64,000 nucleotides of DNA from a virus: IMG/VR virus record IMGVR_UViG_3300045988_140928, positions 1-64,000 of that record; one strand, given 5' to 3'. Positions 1 through 64,000 of this stretch are shown in pieces. The translations under genes were made by a program, and so were the position numbers. How positions within the stretch are numbered: the stretch's first letter is position 1; the number at the start of each line of letters is the position of its first letter. Below the pieces are notes generated by a model that saw nothing but the letters and a program-made list of their open reading frames with translations, had not been told where the DNA came from and made no database searches.

Positions 1-45
1 ACACTTTTAGTTAAATATTCAACTACTTTTGTACAAAAAAGTAAA
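1..45 (-). promoter_or_regulatory. partial copy of the repeated sigma-A-like promoter cassette (the -10 and the driven gene lie left of the window)
   Basis: Plus 1..58 is near-identical to 27011..27068 and 53672..53729. Minus-strand -35 TTGAAT is at 17..22. Confidence 0.5.
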
Positions 46-47
46 AT

Positions 48-77
48 AAAAAAGAGAGGTAAGAAATATACCCCTCT
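48..77 (-). terminator. rho-independent terminator after ORF 78..443
   Basis: Minus RNA AGAGGGG-loop-CCTCTCT (7 bp, one G.U) followed by UUUUU. The G.U pair makes the hairpin minus-strand specific. Confidence 0.55.
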
Positions 78-443
78 TTATTGCAAGTGGATGTGTCCTA
101 AAATTGTCGGAATAAAAGCAATTAAAATAGGCAACCAGATCAAAGTCCATGTATTGTTCTTTTGCTGGTTATCCTTTTCTAGTTGCTTACTCTTCTCTAG
201 GGCTTCTTGTGCCTTATCCTGTGCCTTAGCAGAATCGTCTTCCACATCATCAATACGACTATTAAAGTCTCGTTTTAACTCATCAAACTTACGATTAGAT
301 TGATCTATCTTATCATTTAATGACTTAATCTCAGTTTGAATAGACGCATTAGATGATTGCAGATCCATTAACAAGTTAAAGATTGTATCATTGTCTACCT
401 GCATAGTAGATTTACCTTGATTATTGTCTCTACTTTCCGCCAT
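78..443 (-). CDS. coiled-coil protein with C-terminal transmembrane anchor (possibly lysis-associated)
   Basis: The ORF is open to 542, but that would overlap the upstream ORF by 113 nt. The ATG at 441..443 (MAESRDNN) is the likelier start. C-terminus is WTLIWLPILIAFIPTILGHI. Confidence 0.5.
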   Translation of the reverse strand: MAESRDNNQGKSTMQVDNDTIFNLLMDLQSSNASIQTEIKSLNDKIDQSNRKFDELKRDFNSRIDDVEDDSAKAQDKAQEALEKSKQLEKDNQQKNNTWTLIWLPILIAFIPTILGHIHLQ

Positions 444-909
444 TTTCAGGTACTTGGCTAGTAGCTGGTTGACTTGCTTGGATATTCTCTTTTCCTTGTT
501 CTGGTACTGCTGGAGTTGGCTTTTCCACTGTTGCACTGTCACTTTTTAGTTGCTGAGAATCAGTTGGTGTAGTAGGCTGGTTTGTCTCCCCATAAACCTG
601 TTCTAGGTGTTCTTTTTGGGTGAACCAAGAACGTTCAATTTGTGCTTTAATCAAACTTTCGTCAACGTCAGTAATTCCTAAAGCCTTAAGCTGGCTATTA
701 ACAAAATTAAGAGCATATTGGAACTGTTCATTACCAGTAAGCTGTTTTGTTAAACCTAGCTTTTCAGCTTCTACAACTGCCATACTAACTAGGTTTTCAA
801 CTTTGTAAACCTGTTCACCTAGCTTGTGATTGTTAATCAATTGTTGACCGATCCAGCCCATTACAACTGGAATTAATGCGATTGCAATTGCCATCAGTAA
901 ATCGTGCAT
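430..909 (-). CDS. holin-like membrane protein (LL-H-type pattern: N-terminal TM then soluble tail)
   Basis: N-terminal hydrophobic helix LLMAIAIALIPVVMGWI followed by an amphipathic region. It lies at the distal end of the tail module. The family call is from memory only. Confidence 0.45.
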   Translation of the reverse strand: MHDLLMAIAIALIPVVMGWIGQQLINNHKLGEQVYKVENLVSMAVVEAEKLGLTKQLTGNEQFQYALNFVNSQLKALGITDVDESLIKAQIERSWFTQKEHLEQVYGETNQPTTPTDSQQLKSDSATVEKPTPAVPEQGKENIQASQPATSQVPENGGK

Positions 910-19689: not shown

Positions 19690-20310
19690 TTACTTAACCT
19701 TTCTAGTGGCGTTAATTGCACATACCGGACACTTATGTTTACTAGTCATAAAACTAGCTGGAGTAGCCATCCATACGGTTCCACACTTCTTATGTTTAAA
19801 TGTAACACGTTGATGATAACCTTTGTATTCAGATAAGACTTCAAATTCTTCTCCGTGAGGTAAATCTCTAACCCGTTTCTTAAATTCCTCAGTAGTTAAT
19901 GTTTGCTTCTTAGAGCGGATTTTAATAGCACATACAGGACAACGAGCAGTCCCTACTCCAAAGACGCTAGGAAGAGTCTTAAAGACAGTTCCGCACTTCT
20001 TATGCTTATAACGAATTGGTGTACGATTCTTTGTGTAGTCGTCTAACACTTCATATTCATTATTAGTCAGTTCCTTTACGTATTGTCGATACTCTGCTGG
20101 CGTATAACGTGGACGACCACTGCAATAGGGACAATGAGGTCTTTGATAAAAACTCAGAGGATAAACATATAACACATGACCACATTTATTATGTTTGATA
20201 TGAATTTTAACTATTCCTTTTTGATAAGGATCTAATACCGTATACTCATCACCTACAAGATTATGTAATTCTTGTCGATATTCTTTATCAGTTTTTCTTC
20301 TCATGTTCAA
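19690..20310 (-). CDS. triple Zn-ribbon protein, a nuclease-less member of the HE-like family
   Basis: Three tandem modules of pattern EY..VL..Y....t....HK.CG..f...P..F......CP.C. No FDF...EYDG..H nuclease core. Confidence 0.65.
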   Translation of the reverse strand: MNMRRKTDKEYRQELHNLVGDEYTVLDPYQKGIVKIHIKHNKCGHVLYVYPLSFYQRPHCPYCSGRPRYTPAEYRQYVKELTNNEYEVLDDYTKNRTPIRYKHKKCGTVFKTLPSVFGVGTARCPVCAIKIRSKKQTLTTEEFKKRVRDLPHGEEFEVLSEYKGYHQRVTFKHKKCGTVWMATPASFMTSKHKCPVCAINATRKVK

Positions 20311-20890: not shown

Positions 20891-22747
20891 TTATACCTCT
20901 TTATCTTTCTTTAAATGTTTAGCTAATTTAGATTCTTTCCAAATCTTACCAGTTTTTCGATCTCTAATCAAGCGTTCTTCTGTATCACCTACTGAGTAAT
21001 GAACACTATCTTGTTTAGGGTAAGGTTCAATATCAAACTTTAAGGTCTTACGAGCTTGCTTCTTAAATATTTTTGAACCTAAGAACATGATATAACGATA
21101 CTTGATAGGACTAATTATCATATATCTATAATAATGCCCTTTCTCCCACACGCCACCATGCTTACCATAACCATTCCAAGAATATTCACGATGTTTAGTA
21201 GTTCCACAGTATAAAAAGTTAGTAGCTTGATAAATTGCTCCTGTATGGTGCATACCTTGATCAGCAAAAGAAATAATAAACCAATTACCATCTTGTTCTT
21301 GCTTTAACTGTCTTAAAGTCCACGAAACAAACTTAGACGTAATATTCTTTAAGTTTTGACTTACCTCGTCTTTAATGTATAGTCGGGATAATTCTAGGGT
21401 ATTGTCTTTAGTGGCTAAAGGCGAAATAGACTGAGCAAGACTAATTCTAGGTCTGGTATATGTTACCATACCTGCTAAACTTCCCCTATAATATAAACCA
21501 TAGCAATAAGAAGTAGTAACTCTACGATGTAAATAATGGTATTTAATCATTAGTTCGTCTAACTCACTGCTATCTACCTTTCTAAATTCAACGTCACTAG
21601 ACTTATCTACTAAAGGTAAAAGATAATAATCTAACGTATCCTTAATATTTTCATTATATTTAATCCTAATTAAGTTAATACCATTTTTCTTACAATAGTT
21701 ATCTTTCATCCTATCGTGTTTCTTTTGCAGTTCATAGCGCTCTTTACCTCCGAATAAGTCAATAGGCTTAAAGTGCTGTTGACCATCATACTCAACAGCA
21801 GTATTGAATTGAGGTAGCCAAAAATCAAAATGAAGATTTTTCTTATCTATTAAATCTGGAATTAAATAACCATAAGAGTAACTAAGCTTATGGTTGGCTA
21901 AATAATTCATAATTGCCTGTTCACCATTAGAAGAACCACAATTAGGACACAAACCCCTATTAGCGCTAAGTTGTCCCCATGTAGTCTTAAACACAGTACC
22001 ACATGCACTATGTCTTACATAAATAGGGCTTTGATTATTTTTATAATCACCACTTACGTATGTATAACGACCGTCAGCAACCTTTGAAATACGTTGTTTA
22101 ACTTCGTCTAAGGATAATCTACATCTGTCACCTGTTGCCTTATTAGCACAAAATTTACAACGATAACCATGTATAAAGCTATAGTCTCTAACCCAATATT
22201 CATTTCCACATTCTCTATGTAGTAAATGTAACCACAATCCTTCCTTTTTAGTTCTCTTAGTTCCTAATAATTCATATTTGCCTTTTCCTAAATCTTTAAC
22301 CTCTTTAATTACTTTATTAGGTGTTTTAGGAGCATTTCCTGCACAATTAGGACACCCTTTGCCTTTTAATAGATTAACTGGAAGGGGCGTCCATTCACCC
22401 TTTGAGCCATAGCCACATACAAGACACTTCGCTTTTGTCTTCTTAAAAATACCATGTATAGGCTCAAGTAAAATAATATCATCATTAGGGCGAACTTTAT
22501 GTAGTCTATTCTTAAACTCTTCGTCTGTTAACATACGACTATTAGATCTTTTCCTCATACTACAGTGCTTGCATTTTGCTTTACCTCTAAAAATATTATC
22601 GGGAATTAAAGTTCCAGTAGTACCACAAACTAAATGTTTATACTTAACAGGTGTCTTCATATCCTTATAAGGAGGATAAAAAACATAACTAGAACCTAGC
22701 ATACGTTGTGCCCTATAATTAAATTCGTCAAAAGTTAATTTTTTCAA
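20891..22747 (-). CDS. fusion protein: 4 Zn-ribbon modules + Vsr/DUF559-like PD-(D/E)XK nuclease + Mom-like (GNAT-fold) domain
   Basis: 618 aa. Nuclease core HFDFWLP..AVEYDGQQHF..RMKDNYC..INLIRIKY. C-terminal motifs YHYLHR, LELSRLYI, ISFADQGMHHTGAIYQATNFLYCGTT. TTG start with RBS GAAGGGG. Confidence 0.7.
   Translation of the reverse strand: MKKLTFDEFNYRAQRMLGSSYVFYPPYKDMKTPVKYKHLVCGTTGTLIPDNIFRGKAKCKHCSMRKRSNSRMLTDEEFKNRLHKVRPNDDIILLEPIHGIFKKTKAKCLVCGYGSKGEWTPLPVNLLKGKGCPNCAGNAPKTPNKVIKEVKDLGKGKYELLGTKRTKKEGLWLHLLHRECGNEYWVRDYSFIHGYRCKFCANKATGDRCRLSLDEVKQRISKVADGRYTYVSGDYKNNQSPIYVRHSACGTVFKTTWGQLSANRGLCPNCGSSNGEQAIMNYLANHKLSYSYGYLIPDLIDKKNLHFDFWLPQFNTAVEYDGQQHFKPIDLFGGKERYELQKKHDRMKDNYCKKNGINLIRIKYNENIKDTLDYYLLPLVDKSSDVEFRKVDSSELDELMIKYHYLHRRVTTSYCYGLYYRGSLAGMVTYTRPRISLAQSISPLATKDNTLELSRLYIKDEVSQNLKNITSKFVSWTLRQLKQEQDGNWFIISFADQGMHHTGAIYQATNFLYCGTTKHREYSWNGYGKHGGVWEKGHYYRYMIISPIKYRYIMFLGSKIFKKQARKTLKFDIEPYPKQDSVHYSVGDTEERLIRDRKTGKIWKESKLAKHLKKDKEV
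20950..21600 (-). repeat. dispersed direct repeat, about 650 bp (Mom-like segment, copy 1)
   Basis: About 85-90% nucleotide identity by eye to 54310..54955. An example shared stretch is gggtaaggttcaatatcaaactttaaggtcttacgagcttgcttcttaaa. Confidence 0.8.
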
Positions 22748-22918: not shown

Positions 22919-23213
22919 TTATGATTGTGAACCCGCTGAAGAGCTGAGGTATAGAAACTCAATAGATTCAGACACAATTTGCGAAGCTCTATAGCTGGTA
23001 TTGTAACTGGAGGCACTACATCCATAAAACGCTTCGGCCACCATTTTAGTAACACTATCCATTACAGAAATAGTTAAAACATCAGCTTGCAAAATGTCTT
23101 CTCCCAGATGGGCTATATCCATTTGTTTAGAAGCAAGGTTATCTCGCACCATACGAAATCTTTCTAGTGTAAGAGAACCCGTATATTTGAGGTATACGTG
23201 TTCACGTGGCATA
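22919..23213 (-). CDS. tail-tube-like protein, exon 3
   Basis: The frame stays open when joined to exon 2 (AT + T gives Ile, then MPREHVYLKYTGSLTLER...). The spliced product is 144 aa. Confidence 0.65.
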
Positions 23214-23455
23214 CATTATATTAACTACTTATTTCCAAGTAGATTAGATTATATCTTCCTCTTTATAAGAGGTTCTACATTACCTTAACTTAATAAGAAC
23301 TTAATCGTTAGTCATTTATTTTAGAACGGTTGGTCAACTCTGCCTACTTCTAGGTTTAGTCTTTCTTACTAGCTTATTTAATTCAGTTATTCAGCTTTAC
23401 CCGTTTAGTAGAATTTTTAAATTAACATTACTGTTAATCACCACTATGCTAGTTA
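23214..23455 (-). ncRNA. group I intron, ORF-less (242 nt, IA-like)
   Basis: - P1: CCAU|U with AGUGG, giving a U.G at the splice site
- P2: AUUAAC/GUUAAU
- P3: UUCUAC/GUAGAA
- P8: CCUCUU/AAGAGG
- J8/7-P7: AAGAUAUAAUC
- P9: CUACUU/AAGUAG
- The intron ends in G. Confidence 0.8.
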
Positions 23456-23569
23456 ATGGATCCGATTTCGTATACTCCTTCGGTACCGTAACTTCTGTTA
23501 GCTGTCAAACTTTGAGCACGTGCAATCAAGTGGTTCTTAGCCATGATATAAATTCGGTTACCAGTATTA
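23456..23569 (-). CDS. tail-tube-like protein, exon 2
   Basis: 114 nt encoding (V)NTGNRIYIMAKNHLIARAQSLTANRSYGTEGVYEIGS(I), bounded by an intron-terminal G upstream and a U.G splice site downstream. Confidence 0.65.
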
Positions 23570-23828
23570 CAAAAATTATATTTATATTTTAATATAAAAT
23601 TAGACTATATCTTACTCTTTAATAAGAGTCTTCCTCATTACACCATAAGGCTCTTATCTAATAAATTATTAGAACTTTAGTCGTTAGTCTTTTATTTTAG
23701 AACGGTTGGTCAACTCTACCCCTAGTAGATTACAGGGCTTAGTCTTTCTTACTAGCTTATTCTCTTTTATTACTACTATTTATTTAGCTATACCCGTTTA
23801 GAGGAAATTTTGAAACAGCTAATACTTA
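23570..23828 (-). ncRNA. group I intron, ORF-less (259 nt, IA-like)
   Basis: - P1: AACGGU with GCUGUU, giving a U.G at the splice site
- P3: UUCCUC/GAGGAA
- P7: GACUA/UAGUC
- P7.1: UCUAAUAA/UUAUUAGA
- P8: ACUCUU/AAGAGU
- S element: AAGAUAUAGUC
- The intron ends in G. Confidence 0.8.
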
Positions 23829-23854
23829 ACCGTTTGTCCGGCTACAGTTGCCAA
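23829..23854 (-). CDS. tail-tube-like protein, exon 1 (TTG start)
   Basis: RBS GAAAGGAG, 10 nt, then TTG GCA ACT GTA GCC GGA CAA ACG GT. An in-frame TAA lies immediately upstream. The exon ends in U. Confidence 0.55.
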
Positions 23855-23930
23855 TTATCGACAACTCCTTTCTAATTAGAAAACAAATAATATTAAGATA
23901 TATCTTAGTGGTCATTAATTAATATAGACT

Positions 23931-23964
23931 CAAACAAAAAGAGGTGTCTAATTTAATAGGCACC
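23931..23964 (-). terminator. terminator hairpin after HE-like gene
   Basis: GGUGCCUA/UAGACACC (one mismatch) followed by CUUUUUGUUUG. It overlaps the TAG stop. Confidence 0.5.
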
Positions 23965-24965
23965 TAATTAATATACTTTTCTAATACTCTTTTTATCTCT
24001 CTATAGGTAGTTACAGTATATGGAATTCTAATTAATTTAATATTATGCTCTCTACAATATTGATCTTTTTTTCTATCATTATGTACCTGCTTTCTAAAAG
24101 CTTCATCTCCACCAAAATAACTTCGAGGTTTAAAATGCTGAATACCATCATACTCTATAGCCGAATTAGATTCAGGAAGATAAAAGTCAAAATGCAGTTT
24201 ATTGGGAAGTATATATCCATAAATAAAACTAATATTAGTACGAACTAACCAACTCTTTACTAGAGATTCTCCTCTTGATATATGCTCACATCTACATCTA
24301 TTACCACGTAAAAAATGGTCAGGTCTAACACTATACACACGACCACAAGTCATATGCTTAATTTTAATAGGATTACTACTACCTGTATATTTTCCAATAA
24401 CTTTGTACTCCCCATCCGTAAGATCATAGACTTCCTTCTTAAATTGACTTGTAGACTTTCTCCTTTTACTAGCTAAAGCCTTTCTTTGTTTAATCTGTGC
24501 AATAGACAAACCATTAATTAAATGCTTCTCCTGCTCACGTTTTAATTGATACCTGTGATTCTCTCTTTCTAAACTTTCACAGATCGAACAATGAATCCCA
24601 TTCTGCTTAAAAGACTTAGGTGTGATTAAATAAGAGTGGTTACAACTACGATGAATCAAGCGCACCTTAACCGTATTACCTTGATAAGGAGTAAGTGGAT
24701 CTAAGTACCATTGATTATTAGTTTTAATTTTAATCAACTGCTCAAATGTTTGAGTTGCTCTATGATGATTCGCTGAACAGTAGGGACAGCGTTTGCCTGC
24801 TAGAAAATTATGAGGCGAAACTGAATAAACCCTACCACACTTATTATGCTCCATTAATAACTTGGTATGAGCATTAACATATGTATTAGACTTTACTGTG
24901 TACTCGTTACCTACTAAATTGTAAACTTCCTGCTTAAATTCTTCTATTGTTTTTCTTCTACTCAT
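23964..24965 (-). CDS. free-standing HE-like protein (Zn-ribbon modules + Vsr/DUF559-like nuclease)
   Basis: 333 aa. Core HFDFYLPESNSAIEYDGIQHF..RKKDQYC..IKLIRIPY. RBS TAGGAGG. Confidence 0.7.
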   Translation of the reverse strand: MSRRKTIEEFKQEVYNLVGNEYTVKSNTYVNAHTKLLMEHNKCGRVYSVSPHNFLAGKRCPYCSANHHRATQTFEQLIKIKTNNQWYLDPLTPYQGNTVKVRLIHRSCNHSYLITPKSFKQNGIHCSICESLERENHRYQLKREQEKHLINGLSIAQIKQRKALASKRRKSTSQFKKEVYDLTDGEYKVIGKYTGSSNPIKIKHMTCGRVYSVRPDHFLRGNRCRCEHISRGESLVKSWLVRTNISFIYGYILPNKLHFDFYLPESNSAIEYDGIQHFKPRSYFGGDEAFRKQVHNDRKKDQYCREHNIKLIRIPYTVTTYREIKRVLEKYIN

Positions 24966-41313: not shown

Positions 41314-42459
41314 TCAGTCTGCATAATGAGTCTGAACATGGTTTTGAGCCTCGATCTTATCTAGGGTTTCCGATACCAATTTGCTAATACTTGATAAAGT
41401 ATCGTAAGTGTATTTTATCCTTAAAAGATTAATATTATTATCTAAACAAAATTGATCTTTTATTCTATCGTGTTTAACTAAGTCTGTAGAATAAAATTTA
41501 GAACCTCTATCAAAATGCTGTTTACCATCATATTCTATACATAAATTATAGTCTGGTAAATAAAAATCAAAGGGAAGCCTACGCTTATCTCTACACCCGT
41601 CAAACTTAAATTCTCTACAATACTCGATACTTAACTTATCCAATACCTTAGCAACCATAGAATTACCGTGACTAGATCCATGTTGAAAACACCAAGGGCA
41701 ACGGTGACCACTACCTATAAAATCATAAGGAATCATACTAAAACTCTTCCTACATATTTTATGCTTAAAAACAACTTTAGTCTTAGCATTTTTATATTTA
41801 CTCAATACTGTATAGTCACCATCAGTTAAGTTACATACAGTCTCTTCAAATTCTTGCTGTGTCCTTCTATGCTTTCCAAAACATCGAGGGCATCTTTCTC
41901 CTCCTAAGAAAGCAGTAGGACTAACCATATACACATTCCCACAAGAAAAATGTTTAACCTTGACCTTTGTATGTGAATTTTTATATACACTTAATAATTT
42001 ATAATCATCTTTTGCAACATAATAGAAGTCATGTTCAAACTGCTTAGGTGTTTTTCTAACTCCCCCTTTGCATCGAGGACATCTAGCACCCCGCAAAAAA
42101 GCACTAGGTGATACCTCATATTCATTCCCACACTTATTATGTTTCATCAAAATTTTAGTATTACTACCTACATATTCACCTAAAATAGAATATTCATTTC
42201 CTACTAAATTATATACCCTATCTCTAAATTCATCTGTAGTAAGTCTACACTTGATTCCTTTTTCTTTATCTGAGCAATAAAGACAAGTAGCTCCCCTATA
42301 AATATTACTAGGAAACATTAAGTTAATATGACCACATTTTAAATGCTTAACCCTAACTCTCGTAGTTGAGTTAACATACTTATCCAAAATAGCGTAATCG
42401 GAACCTAAAGCTCTAGTTGCCCTCTGAAGAAATTCTTCATTAGTTAATTTCCTAGACAT
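41314..42459 (-). CDS. free-standing HE-like protein (4 Zn-ribbon modules + Vsr/DUF559-like nuclease)
   Basis: 381 aa. Core LPFDFYLPDYNLCIEYDGKQHF..RIKDQFC..INLLRIKY. The C-terminus IEAQNHVQTHYAD duplicates the sheath C-terminus. Confidence 0.7.
   Translation of the reverse strand: MSRKLTNEEFLQRATRALGSDYAILDKYVNSTTRVRVKHLKCGHINLMFPSNIYRGATCLYCSDKEKGIKCRLTTDEFRDRVYNLVGNEYSILGEYVGSNTKILMKHNKCGNEYEVSPSAFLRGARCPRCKGGVRKTPKQFEHDFYYVAKDDYKLLSVYKNSHTKVKVKHFSCGNVYMVSPTAFLGGERCPRCFGKHRRTQQEFEETVCNLTDGDYTVLSKYKNAKTKVVFKHKICRKSFSMIPYDFIGSGHRCPWCFQHGSSHGNSMVAKVLDKLSIEYCREFKFDGCRDKRRLPFDFYLPDYNLCIEYDGKQHFDRGSKFYSTDLVKHDRIKDQFCLDNNINLLRIKYTYDTLSSISKLVSETLDKIEAQNHVQTHYAD
41317..41355 (-). repeat. direct repeat B (copy of the sheath gene 3' end)
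   Basis: ATCGAGGCTCAAAACCATGTTCAGACTCATTATGCAGAC compared with 42576..42614. The differences are mostly synonymous. Confidence 0.7.
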
Positions 42460-42569: not shown

Positions 42570-44513
42570 TTACATATCTGCATAGTGAGTCTGGACTCTT
42601 GAGTTGGCTTCAATCCCAGCCACAGTCTCCGTGTCTGGGTTAATTCCGTTCCCTTCAATTCCACTGTAATCAGAGTTAGAACCACCATTACCACCAGCAC
42701 TTGATACAAAGTTAGTATAAGTACCAGCAACGTAGATAGTTCGTAGTCCACGTGATGGAGCACAGGAGAATGAAACATAAGCTTGATTACCATTGATTAC
42801 TGTTTGGATTGATGTAGCATCATAACTAGCTAACATACCATCAGAAACACGTTGTTTCAAGAATGCTTCAATAAAAGTATTAATCAAACCACTTGTAATT
42901 TGATGTACCGGCATACCAATGAAGTTGTCTTCAAGGTAATAACGCAAGTCATCAAATAAGAAGTCTGTAATTTCCTGTAATGAAACAACATTCTTAGTAG
43001 GTTCGTTAGTAGAGTTATAAGTAGTTACGTCTTCTACAATAGTAAATCCACCGGACGTATTTCTACGTACTTGGTTTTCAATAGCGATAACACCATTAGC
43101 GTCTAATTGGTCCAGTTCGTCACCATCAAAGTTTTGATCTAAACTTACTAAGTTAAGATGCTTATAAGTAACTGGTGTACCAATAGGTAAACTAGAAGCA
43201 ATACCAGCAACATAAGAAGCCATGAGGTAAGCAGGAATATGAACTTCCTTACCAGACAAATTAGTGTAAGTACCAGAGTTAGCAACAAGAGCTACACGGT
43301 TGGATTGCAGACCTAGCTGACGGTTAATTGCATAATTGAAATCTTCGTTATAGCCACCACCTACAAATGACATGTAGTTATAACCTAAAATGTTTTCTTC
43401 ACTAAGGAATTCAGCTAATTCAGCATGAACGTTTTCTTCAGCTGTTAATGGAACAATGTAGTAAACATTCTTACCATGTACATTCTTAAATTTATCAGCC
43501 CATGAAATAGGTACTTGACCATCGTCTCCACCAGAAAGGTATTCATTAGCAAAAATTTGAATATCTTTCTTAACTGGAGTAGCAGTAATAGTAGCACCAT
43601 CAGCAGTAGGAGTAGCCTTAACTTCTGTAGGTGCACCTAATGAATTAATGCTTACTGAAATGTAAGGGTCCATTCGAGTAGATAACTTCAAATCACCGTA
43701 AACACTAGTAACAGTAGTAGGTTCTTCTTCCGTACCAATCAATACGTAGTCGTCACCCGGTGTTAAATCTAAGTCTGCCGTGTTAATACGGGCACAAGTC
43801 TTCAAAACTGTCGATTGAAAGCCCGGTGTTGCATTAATAGCAGACAAAAGCTTTTGAACCTGATCAAATGAAACTTTAGTAAGGTCCAATTCACGTACTA
43901 CTTGCATATTCTTAGGATCATCACCCATAGCTAGGATAAACTTATTAGCACGAGCAACATTACCTACAACTTTATAACCGTAGTACTTTGCAGTAGCTTG
44001 GCGACCTCCATGGTAAATGCCAAAGATATTACCAATGTTAGTGTAGTTCTTAGCGTACATTTGTGGTTCATATTCTACCCGTAAAGTATAACCCTGTGAT
44101 AAAGCGTCCCGAGTAAATGAAACCCCAATCTTATTAGCACTAGCACCAAAAACTTTAGAAGTAATAGTGATGGGGCCTTCTTCTAGTGAAGCTTGCGTAG
44201 CATTTTCAACCCGCATAGCGTAAACCTTACCACCATTTTGGTAGTAATCACCAGTTGGATTCCAGATTAATTCCATTGCCTTTACTAAGTCACCAGAACC
44301 AAAAATCTTTCGAGCACTGGCAGATGACTTAATTTCATAAACATTATTAGGATTACCTTCTGTTGCTGAACCTAGCAAAAAGATATTCTTTTCTGAGTCT
44401 GAAGATTGGTTAGTTAAGGCTGAGTCATCATAACTTGTTTCAACATGAGGACGTGAATTATAAAACTTTGGATAGATTCGCTTCATAGTATCAGATGAAG
44501 GAATTAATGCCAT
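42570..44513 (-). CDS. tail sheath protein
   Basis: The start is set at the ATG at 44511..44513 (MALIPSS). The N-terminal pattern FLLGSATEGNPNNVYEI...GDLVKAMELIWNP resembles SPO1-like/Twort-like sheath proteins. 647 aa. Confidence 0.8.
   Translation of the reverse strand: MALIPSSDTMKRIYPKFYNSRPHVETSYDDSALTNQSSDSEKNIFLLGSATEGNPNNVYEIKSSASARKIFGSGDLVKAMELIWNPTGDYYQNGGKVYAMRVENATQASLEEGPITITSKVFGASANKIGVSFTRDALSQGYTLRVEYEPQMYAKNYTNIGNIFGIYHGGRQATAKYYGYKVVGNVARANKFILAMGDDPKNMQVVRELDLTKVSFDQVQKLLSAINATPGFQSTVLKTCARINTADLDLTPGDDYVLIGTEEEPTTVTSVYGDLKLSTRMDPYISVSINSLGAPTEVKATPTADGATITATPVKKDIQIFANEYLSGGDDGQVPISWADKFKNVHGKNVYYIVPLTAEENVHAELAEFLSEENILGYNYMSFVGGGYNEDFNYAINRQLGLQSNRVALVANSGTYTNLSGKEVHIPAYLMASYVAGIASSLPIGTPVTYKHLNLVSLDQNFDGDELDQLDANGVIAIENQVRRNTSGGFTIVEDVTTYNSTNEPTKNVVSLQEITDFLFDDLRYYLEDNFIGMPVHQITSGLINTFIEAFLKQRVSDGMLASYDATSIQTVINGNQAYVSFSCAPSRGLRTIYVAGTYTNFVSSAGGNGGSNSDYSGIEGNGINPDTETVAGIEANSRVQTHYADM
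42576..42614 (-). repeat. direct repeat A (sheath gene 3' end)
   Basis: ATTGAAGCCAACTCAAGAGTCCAGACTCACTATGCAGAT encodes IEANSRVQTHYAD. Confidence 0.7.
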
Positions 44514-44542
44514 TTTATCCCGTTCCTTTCTACTTAACAATA

Positions 44543-62911: not shown

Positions 62912-64000
62912 CAATTATATTAACTACTTATTTCTAAGTAGATTAGACTATATCTTTATCCTACTAGGATATTCCCTATATAGTCGTTAGACCTGTTTTA
63001 ACTTGGTACGGGATTAGCCTGCCTTACTTAAATTATAAGGTTTAGCTTCTCTTATCACCTTATTACGGTAAGCCCGTTTAGGGGATATTTATTTAACAGA
63101 TATTACTATCTGTGACCGCTTAAATGCTTAGTTAAAATTGATTTTATTTGTTTCTTAGTCGTAATAGTATATGGAATACGAATTAAAGTAATATCATTAT
63201 TTTTACAATAGGTGTCCTTAAGATAATCTCGATATACTAAACTTTTATAATTATCTATACCACCCCAAAAACTAATAGGCTTATAATGTTGTTCTCCATC
63301 ATATTCAATTGCTATCTTTTTATTAGGAAACCAAAAGTCAAAATGAAGATTATTCTTATACTTTAAATCTGGAATAATATACCCATAAGTAAAATCATTT
63401 CCCTCAGAATAATGGAAATCTTGGGTTAAAGACGATAATATTAATCTTTCACCGTAACTTGATCGTTCATGTAAAGCACAATAAGGGCAACCTGTATGGT
63501 TATATTGAATATCACCATACCTAGCTTCATACACAGTATTGCATACTAAATGCTTAATCTTAATATGTTGGCGATTGCCTTTATACTCATCATCTTTAGT
63601 TAGCACTACATATTCACTACCTAGAATATCTTTAATATTCTCCCTTACCTGAGATAAAGGAGTCCTTTGATTAATTCCAATCTTAGGTGAACGATCTACA
63701 TAGGAACATTTTAGGCATCCATGACCCCTCAAAAAATCAGCAGGACGTGTCATATAAATATTACCACATCTATTATGCTTAACTTTTACTAAAGTATCTG
63801 AATTTTTATATATAGATAATACGATATACTCATTACCCCACTGTTTCTTAACTCTACTTAAAAATTCGCTATTAGTCATAGTTCTTAATTTAACTCTGTG
63901 TTCCTTAGCACATTCAGGACAACGCTGACCATTCAAAAAGCTATTAGGATTCATCATAAAATGATGATTGCATTTAAGATGAATAAACTCTACCTTAGTT
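62912..64000 (-). mobile_element. group I intron (3' part) carrying an HE-like ORF, inserted in the terminase gene
   Basis: The core lies downstream of the ORF: CUAAACGGG (P3/P4 region), P7 GACUAUA/UAUAGUC, P8 AUCCU/AGGAU, S element AAGAUAUAGUC (62946..62956), P9 CUACUU/AAGUAG, terminal G at 62912. Confidence 0.8.
63106..64000 (-). CDS. intron-encoded HE-like protein (Zn-ribbon modules + Vsr/DUF559-like nuclease), 5'-truncated by the window edge
   Basis: The frame stays open to position 64000 (..LKVEFIHLKCNHHFMMNPNSFLNGQRCPEC). Core HFDFWFPNKKIAIEYDGEQHY..RDYLKDTYC..ITLIRIPY. Confidence 0.7.
   Translation of the reverse strand, partial: TKVEFIHLKCNHHFMMNPNSFLNGQRCPECAKEHRVKLRTMTNSEFLSRVKKQWGNEYIVLSIYKNSDTLVKVKHNRCGNIYMTRPADFLRGHGCLKCSYVDRSPKIGINQRTPLSQVRENIKDILGSEYVVLTKDDEYKGNRQHIKIKHLVCNTVYEARYGDIQYNHTGCPYCALHERSSYGERLILSSLTQDFHYSEGNDFTYGYIIPDLKYKNNLHFDFWFPNKKIAIEYDGEQHYKPISFWGGIDNYKSLVYRDYLKDTYCKNNDITLIRIPYTITTKKQIKSILTKHLSGHR

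Follow-up and report, generated by a model that had tools for sequence, protein, structure and literature searches.

Two putative group I introns of one family in the tail-tube gene of an uncultured Lactobacillus-type phage

Architecture of the split tail-tube gene

The window analyzed here is a stretch of 64,000 nucleotides (nt) from the viral record IMGVR_UViG_3300045988_140928, and its source is an uncultured Lactobacillus-type phage. Positions 22919..23854 of its minus strand very probably represent a tail-tube gene interrupted by two group I introns, which belong to one family, lack an internal open reading frame (ORF) and would be removed by splicing. The tail-tube reading frame comprises exons 23854..23829, 23569..23456 and 23213..22919 (26, 114 and 295 nt), which join to 435 nt, and the intervening introns are 259 and 242 nt long. 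The assignment to group I is supported by the splice-site rules, by the pairing of a guide with the flanking exons and by covariation across a family alignment. The parts of the gene, all on the minus strand, are as follows.

23865..23872, putative ribosome-binding site GAAAGGAG, read from the sequence, 10 nt upstream of the TTG start
23829..23854, exon 1, 26 nt (8 codons plus 2 nt) with TTG start and final base U
23570..23828, intron 1, 259 nt, ORF-less, phase 2 in codon 9, without P2
23456..23569, exon 2, 114 nt (38 codons' worth) with final base U; residues 10-47 matched at 100% by tblastn
23214..23455, intron 2, 242 nt, ORF-less, phase 2 in codon 47, with P2
22919..23213, exon 3, 295 nt including the TAA stop at 22921..22919

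The exon coordinates had been proposed in a preliminary description of the sequence and were confirmed by alignment with an uninterrupted gene. In L006, a related metagenomic contig of 145.9 kb, the tube gene is a continuous 435 nt and its neighbors are those of the window, namely an endonuclease-like gene upstream and a gene for a 618-residue endonuclease-like/Mom protein downstream. The spliced window sequence aligned with the L006 gene without gaps over all 435 nt (84% nucleotide and 94% amino acid identity), and exon 1 was collinear with nt 1-26. When the two were compared using blastn, the extra DNA in the window lay exactly after nt 26 and nt 140. Because 46 of the 55 codons that differ between the window and L006 are synonymous and 9 are non-synonymous, the joined frame is judged to be under purifying selection across exons 1, 2 and 3. 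A ribosome-binding site alike in motif and spacing is present in L006 and in five other related contigs (L012, L015, L016, L019 and L021).

A shift of either junction by one base yields an identical mRNA but leaves an intron that ends in U. The sole choice in which the 5' exon ends in U and the intron ends in G is that of the preliminary description, and with it the frame of 144 amino acids is restored exactly, as had been claimed. No ORF of at least 30 codons in the orientation of the gene fills either insert, so that the introns are ORF-less as described. Without splicing, read-through from exon 1 would end in ...QTVKY* and read-through from exon 2 in ...GSIN*, with an in-frame stop after three codons of intron 1 and after two codons of intron 2; unspliced RNA cannot yield the tube protein. 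Early in-frame stops have been noted in phage group I introns (PMC3984707). The peptides of the spliced protein that span the junctions are QTVNTGNR (junction 1) and SYGTEGVYEIGSIMPR.

The spliced product is, by homology, a Herelleviridae tail tube protein. It matched phrog_985 (E = 2.7e-58) and the tail tube of a phi812-type Staphylococcus phage (PDB 8q01_A; E = 1.4e-42), each over residues 1-140, and the tube identity suggested in the preliminary description thus holds from end to end. The alignment with 8q01_A passes through both junctions, where QTVNTGN is aligned with QTVHTGN and EIGSIMPREHVYL with EIGSIMPQEHVYL. Further, tblastn of the spliced product detected matches in 757 phage records, many of them annotated as tail tube and essentially all from Herelleviridae-type phages of Firmicutes hosts; the top match was LfeInf gp009 (76.6% identity). 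The Pfam family PF26461 (Phi812_tail_tube) is precomputed for metagenomic homologues up to 94% identical. A Pfam scan of the spliced protein itself returned only a spurious weak match, and the copy that was scanned apparently does not include PF26461. There was no second tube homologue within the 64-kb window.

Splice-site pairing and the intron core

One contiguous guide in each intron is predicted to pair with both flanking exons, forming P1 with the upstream exon and P10 with the downstream exon. In intron 1, the exon end AAACGGU pairs with the guide GCUGUUU, and in intron 2 the exon end CCAU pairs with GUGG. In agreement with the preliminary description, the U that ends each 5' exon faces a G in P1 (U23829·G23819 and U23456·G23444), and both introns end in G (G23570 and G23214). 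The conserved S element that it had pointed out was found as AAGATATAGTC at 23613..23603 and AAGATATAATC at 23257..23247, and the P3, P7 and P8 pairs that it listed were all there and fully paired. The central domains of the two introns are almost identical, and P3, P7 and P8 differ between them by matched compensatory changes; the P7 strands are GACUA/UAGUC (intron 1) and GAUUA/UAAUC (intron 2).

The guide follows its exons in a diverged relative. In L012, the tube protein of which is 76% identical, intron 1 is flanked by AGUCAGU and UAACAC and carries the guide GUGUUA|GCUGACU. Three positions of P1 are altered there while the exon-guide pairing is kept, and in P10 the pairing of GUGUUA with UAACAC reflects a compensatory change.

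The helices of intron 1, all on the minus strand, are as follows; the core extends over 23631..23806 and the 3' core over 23581..23629.

23813..23835, P1, in which AAACGGU|UAA pairs with UUAGCUGUUU (10 bp), U23829·G23819 being at the splice site
23820..23825, P10 guide GUAUUA, which pairs with UAAUAC, bases 1-6 of exon 2 (23569..23564)
23806..23801 / 23636..23631, P3, core
23797..23794 / 23705..23702, P4, core
23790..23786 / 23757..23753, first hairpin at the P5 position, core
23744..23741 / 23715..23712, enclosing 23737..23734 / 23723..23720, second hairpin at the P5 position, core
23701..23699 / 23690..23688, P6, core
23682..23678, 5' strand of P7, core
23629..23624 / 23619..23614, P8, 3' core
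23613..23603, J8/7 and the 3' strand of P7, AAGAUAUAGUC, 3' core
23598..23581, P9 hairpin, 3' core
23570, terminal G (omega G)

The corresponding elements of intron 2, also on the minus strand, are as follows.

23441..23459, P1, in which CCAU|UA pairs with UAGUGG, U23456·G23444 being at the splice site
23449..23445, P10 guide GCAUA, which pairs with the start of exon 3, UAUGC (23213..23209)
23439..23433 / 23426..23420, P2
23413..23408 / 23278..23273, P3
23404..23401 / 23329..23326, P4
23396..23393 / 23374..23371, first hairpin at the P5 position
23361..23358 / 23339..23336, with inner helix 23354..23351 / 23346..23343, second hairpin at the P5 position
23306..23302 / 23251..23247, P7
23298..23294 / 23287..23283, P7.1
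23272..23267 / 23263..23258, P8
23242..23237 / 23230..23225, P9
23214, terminal G (omega G)

We provisionally name the two inner hairpins as a split P5, and the helix names between the P4 strands are to be read in the same sense. P4 (ACGG/CCGU), the abutting 3-bp P6, J3/4 (UAA) and J6/7 are placed as in the group I consensus. The strands J6/7-P7 (CUAACGACUA) and J8/7-P7' (GAUAUAGUC) are close to those of the introns in orf142 of phage Twort, and J8/7 (AAGAUAUA) matches both the Rfam consensus and the Twort introns; the introns thus carry the sequence features of a conserved J8/7 and of a P7 that is predicted to bind guanosine. Two small hairpins (P7.1 and P7.2) lie between P7 and P3' in intron 1, one in intron 2 and none in a related intron of the terminase gene; helices at this place are used to recognize subgroup IA (phage-type), of which the two introns are no more than possible members. 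Two other pairings were considered and rejected, namely ACGGG/CCUGU for P4 and an upstream GACUA repeat as the 5' strand of P7, both of which are broken in other members of the family.

Covariation across the intron family

The family was collected by a motif scan of IMG/VR and by look-ups of homologous proteins. The 21 members used (7 tube introns 1 and 6 tube introns 2, the rest from terminase and DNA polymerase genes) were aligned using MAFFT in the ordinary manner, and the alignment was fitted to no structure. From it RNAalifold recovered, unaided, P3, P4, the two inner hairpins, P6, P8 and P9, with compensatory changes at 17 of 33 pairs. P7 was then added as a pseudoknot, and one competing hairpin (AGAU/AUAG inside J8/7, which competes with P7) was dropped before cells were counted. 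In the resulting P3/P7 pseudoknot fold, 94.3% of 751 cells were paired, compared with 28-45% when the partners were slid by 1-3 columns. Two-sided changes occurred at 20 of the 36 pairs (125 cells), and none of 500 shuffles reached the observed covariation.

Further, a hidden Markov model of the family detected all three Twort introns (E = 1e-4 to 0.04) and matched the 5' halves of the terminase introns of phage LP65 and Aerococcus phage AVP (E ~1e-18).

Several results weigh against a group I assignment. The Rfam model RF00028 (Intron_gpI), named as a check in the preliminary description, gave 24.4 bits for intron 1 (E = 0.001) and 20.6 bits for intron 2 (E = 0.015) in a local scan, below the curated gathering threshold of 50 bits; at that threshold there was no match in the whole window, and with an E-value threshold for the 64 kb as a whole, intron 1 and the terminase intron were the sole matches. 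Between the P4 strands there are two hairpins supported by covariation and no single P5, which does not fit the Rfam consensus. The minimum free energy folds of the single introns were no better than those of shuffled sequences (z = -1.5 and -0.4). Only four exon bases pair in P1 of intron 2. Moreover, the covariation alignment holds close relatives, and its cell counts overstate the number of independent events.

The compensatory changes nevertheless fall between clearly distinct lineages and sites. The sub-threshold RF00028 matches lie in both gaps of the gene and on the correct strand, with a sensible alignment for the 3' half alone (P8, J8/7, P7' and P9), and the scores are probably low because two hairpins replace the single P5. 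The weak z scores are expected because the RNAs are AT-rich and pseudoknotted, and no support comes from them either.

Presence and absence of the introns among relatives

All four states of the tube gene (both introns, either one, neither) were found in independent assemblies.

Both introns: the window, L010, L019, L021 and L024
Intron 1 only: L012, L015, L016 and L025
Intron 2 only: L020
Neither intron: L006, L013, L014 and LfeInf

Intron 2 is also carried by L008. In IMG/VR, the two N-terminal sites were occupied only in the clade of the window (>90% protein identity), and the matches of Staphylococcus type break at residues 111-118, which is the region of the Twort introns. When alleles with and without introns were compared, the substitutions (at synonymous positions) clustered around both sites, and L016 is identical to the window through coding nt 113 and diverges thereafter, beside the intron 2 site. 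These patterns are consistent with recombination or co-conversion and are no proof of homing.

Four contigs, each from a different sample, have A rather than G as the final base of tube intron 2 (..AATATAATA|TATGCC; L008 ~399, L009 ~33, L010 ~483 and L011 ~33), the intron otherwise appearing intact. Such copies may have lost function or may be spliced in an unusual manner. At the start of the tube gene, L013 (~2977), L014 (~730) and L024 (~8897) have ATC where the window has TTG, which may be a rare non-canonical start codon; gene callers begin at the GTG of codon 9 in these relatives and produce 136-residue forms. L015 also carries, at 1..886, an IS605 OrfB/TnpB (Cas12f-like) gene ~2 kb upstream of the tube gene.

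Among the 120 homologue clusters listed, 45 consist of N-terminally truncated ORFs of 127 residues and 3 of exon 3 ORFs of 97 residues (P0110, P0111 and P0113); the truncated clusters fall within P0010, P0035-P0109 and P0110-P0113. Intron 1 was present in all three of the 127-residue cases inspected. The 127- and 97-residue ORFs are gene-calling artefacts of the introns. The family is thus missed at the curated threshold of Rfam and turned into truncated genes by gene callers, and the annotation of the tube gene in the clade of the window is systematically wrong.

Other copies of the intron family

The sites occupied by the family core number at least seven: the tube gene and the DNA polymerase gene account for two each and the terminase gene for three or more. 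The window itself holds a third copy in the large terminase gene (62915..63145, minus strand), which scored 44.3 bits with RF00028, also below 50. An endonuclease-like ORF of 283 residues (63106..63957) stops just before P2 of this copy, apparently inside the 5' part of the intron, and the 5' exon of the terminase gene lies beyond the end of the window. The large terminase genes of relatives have at least three insertion sites for the family (L017 2184..2855, L018 4328..5048 and L023 7658..7964), two of them ~140 nt apart in one gene. Further, the DNA polymerase I gene of L022 (3961..4461, minus strand) carries two family introns in tandem, together with an apparent intein with an endonuclease domain (CLDGDT...SHNT).

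With one ribozyme core at many sites, matched guides and all states of presence and absence, the family offers a natural series for the spread of ORF-less introns.

Gene order and endonuclease-like genes

The sheath gene is located at 42570..44540 (phrog_279, 4e-100). Next come a homing-endonuclease-like gene, the genes for the tail chaperones and that for a tape-measure/lysin protein, and no tube gene is among them, as the preliminary description had noted. The separation of tube and sheath by ~19 kb that it inferred is real but is not peculiar to this genome. In LfeInf, the sheath (gp031) and tube (gp009) genes are likewise ~12.5 kb apart, and the separation is, on this gene order, a lineage trait common to the window and LfeInf.

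The window contains a set of paralogous, free-standing endonuclease-like genes, five in number and all on the minus strand. Each has treble-clef zinc-finger repeats, and four have in addition a C-terminal nuclease-like module (phrog_559, phrog_9084).

19690..20310, endonuclease-like paralogue
20891..22747, endonuclease-like/Mom-like fusion of 618 residues, downstream of the tube gene (PF25680 Mom, 1.4e-30; phrog_1384, 4e-42)
23964..24965, homing-endonuclease-like gene of 333 residues, upstream of the tube gene; it has both the treble-clef repeats and the C-terminal nuclease-like module
41314..42459, endonuclease-like paralogue next after the sheath gene, where related phages have their tube gene
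63106..63957, endonuclease-like paralogue at the terminase intron

The 333-residue protein matched phrog_559 at 1e-81 and phrog_9084 ('homing endonuclease') at 1e-29, and Pfam DUF4379/CapR weakly; its comparison with PDB sequences gave no meaningful match. It also matched Twort ORF018 ('intron encoded nuclease', E = 2e-9), the gene for which follows orf142. The 618-residue protein is 29% identical to this upstream paralogue (E = 2e-41), and the same fusion with Mom occurs in L006 and L012.

Proposed splicing pathway and alternative explanations

On the standard group I pathway suggested by this anatomy, each intron would fold into a ribozyme in the late transcript. The guide near the 5' end of the intron would pair with the end of the upstream exon, with the U·G pair at the cleavage site, and the same guide would pair with the start of the downstream exon. 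Free guanosine bound in P7 would attack after the U, the freed exon end would attack after the terminal G of the intron, and ligation of the exons would restore the frame of 144 codons. The two introns may be sibling copies of a small ribozyme family, each with a guide matched to its own site, and may have been gained or lost independently in related phages.

We considered how ORF-less introns might move. In collaborative homing, an enzyme cuts the intron-less allele at the insertion site and repair copies the intron in (PMC3984707), and the introns could be mobilized in trans in this way by the free-standing endonuclease-like genes directly on either side of the tube gene. A homologue of these genes follows Twort orf142, the introns are polymorphic for presence and absence, and differences between alleles cluster at both sites, as in the divergence of L016 from nt 113. 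However, L006, L013 and L014 have the flanking genes without introns, one or both flanking genes are missing from L015, L016 and L008-L011, which carry introns, and the clustered substitutions are equally explicable by the pairing needs of P1 and P10 or by ordinary recombination. Because endonuclease-like genes and introns were uncorrelated across the related contigs compared, we regard mobilization in trans as unlikely.

The introns are separated by only 114 nt in one transcript, which bears on their different P3, P7 and P8. Were the 5' half of intron 1 to combine with the 3' half of intron 2, P3 would contain two mismatches and P7 one. Further, because the two introns share phase 2 and exon 2 amounts to exactly 38 codons, exon 1 joins exon 3 in frame to encode 106 residues, and exon skipping has been reported for Twort orf142 (PMC11878797). 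That the helix differences avert cross-folding of the sibling ribozymes, with exon 2 skipping as a regulated or tolerated second product, is a rather improbable proposal at present.

Splicing in vivo might instead depend on a maturase-like protein of the phage or host, which the atypical P4-P6 would need. The P5 position is occupied by two short hairpins and P6 has only 2-3 bp, the introns are very AT-rich with weak predicted stability, and several nucleic-acid-binding homing-endonuclease-like paralogues are encoded nearby. We consider such dependence decidedly improbable, given that the core strands are close to those of the Twort ribozymes, which are reported to self-splice in vitro, that no maturase-type protein was identified and that L015 and L016 have introns without flanking endonuclease-like genes.

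It is very improbable that the inserts are dead intron remnants or repeats that are no longer spliced, the tube gene being a pseudogene and the protein coming from a gene outside the 64-kb window. The Rfam scores below threshold and the intron 2 copies of L008-L011 that end in A, which suggests that some copies are decaying, would fit this explanation, as would the fact that 64 kb of a ~145-kb genome are visible. On the other hand, the exons are under strong purifying selection in intron-bearing alleles (46 versus 9 codons), the ribozyme helices stay paired through compensatory changes and the guides track changes in the exons. Neither the terminal G nor the U·G pair nor the core strands are impaired in the window, and almost every one of the 757 phage records has just one tube locus. 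Finally, an assembly or chimera artefact is scarcely credible: although the intron copies are repeats at which related contigs often break, identical inserts occur at identical bases across independent samples and assemblers (ENA, Logan and IMG/VR), and at both junctions the splice rules hold and the frame is restored. A tail-tube gene with two group I introns that would be spliced is therefore the reading that we retain, with self-splicing by the introns themselves as its presumed catalytic mode.

Comparison with known systems

The tube gene of phi812/K-type phages (PDB 8q01 and related, PF26461) is homologous over its full length (142 versus 144 residues), but it is uninterrupted and directly follows the sheath gene, whereas the gene in the window is split and lies ~19 kb from the sheath. 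The closest cultured homologue of the product, LfeInf gp009 of Hopescreekvirus, starts with TTG as well and is likewise parted from its sheath gene. Unlike the window gene, it has no intron, and its annotation goes no further than 'virion structural protein'. When 24 kb of the window were compared by megablast with cultured phages, LfeInf included, there was no match, and our literature search on LfeInf and introns found nothing relevant.

Among cultured phages, the closest sequence relatives of the introns are the terminase introns of LP65, a Lactobacillus phage, and of Aerococcus phage vB_AviM_AVP. These interrupt the large terminase gene rather than the tube gene, have an endonuclease ORF inside the intron and appear in database records as unannotated gaps between gene fragments. 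According to a 2019 paper (PMC6669764), group I introns had by then been proven in JCL1032 alone among Lactobacillus phages. Phage introns occur mostly in DNA-metabolism and terminase genes (PMC11878797), and a virion structural gene is therefore a less usual host. No report of introns at these two sites of the tube gene was found in the literature, of which our coverage was incomplete.

The nearest parallel is Twort orf142, to which the preliminary description had likened the window gene. The parallel is more than a reminiscence, as orf142 is an orthologous tail-tube gene (55.6% identity over residues 1-117); it does not extend to the insertion sites. Twort orf142 is the tail tube gene (PMC11878797) and contains three group I introns (Landthaler and Shub, 1999, as cited in PMC11878797), and the crystal structure of the orf142-I2 ribozyme has been determined (Golden, 2005, as cited in PMC3984707). 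Its exons, which we reconstructed from the genome, are 345, 41, 23 and 20 nt long and make 142 codons plus the stop. The two genes are alike in that several small ORF-less group I introns lie in one late gene of ~143 codons, that the J6/7-P7 and J8/7-P7' strands are near-identical and that an endonuclease-like gene lies immediately downstream.

In contrast, the Twort introns are inserted after nt 345, 386 and 409, within the last 27 codons, and those of the window after nt 26 and 140. The Twort introns score 64-101 bits with RF00028 and have a canonical P4-P5-P6, whereas those of the window score 21-24 bits and have the P5 position split into two hairpins. The host clade and genus of Twort also differ from those of the window phage. 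With the three sites of Twort and the two of the window, there are five distinct intron sites in the ~143-codon tail-tube gene of Herelleviridae. The predicted introns of the window are thus of a known kind, the group I introns of the Herelleviridae tube gene, at two new insertion sites, and the Twort precedent removes most of the surprise.

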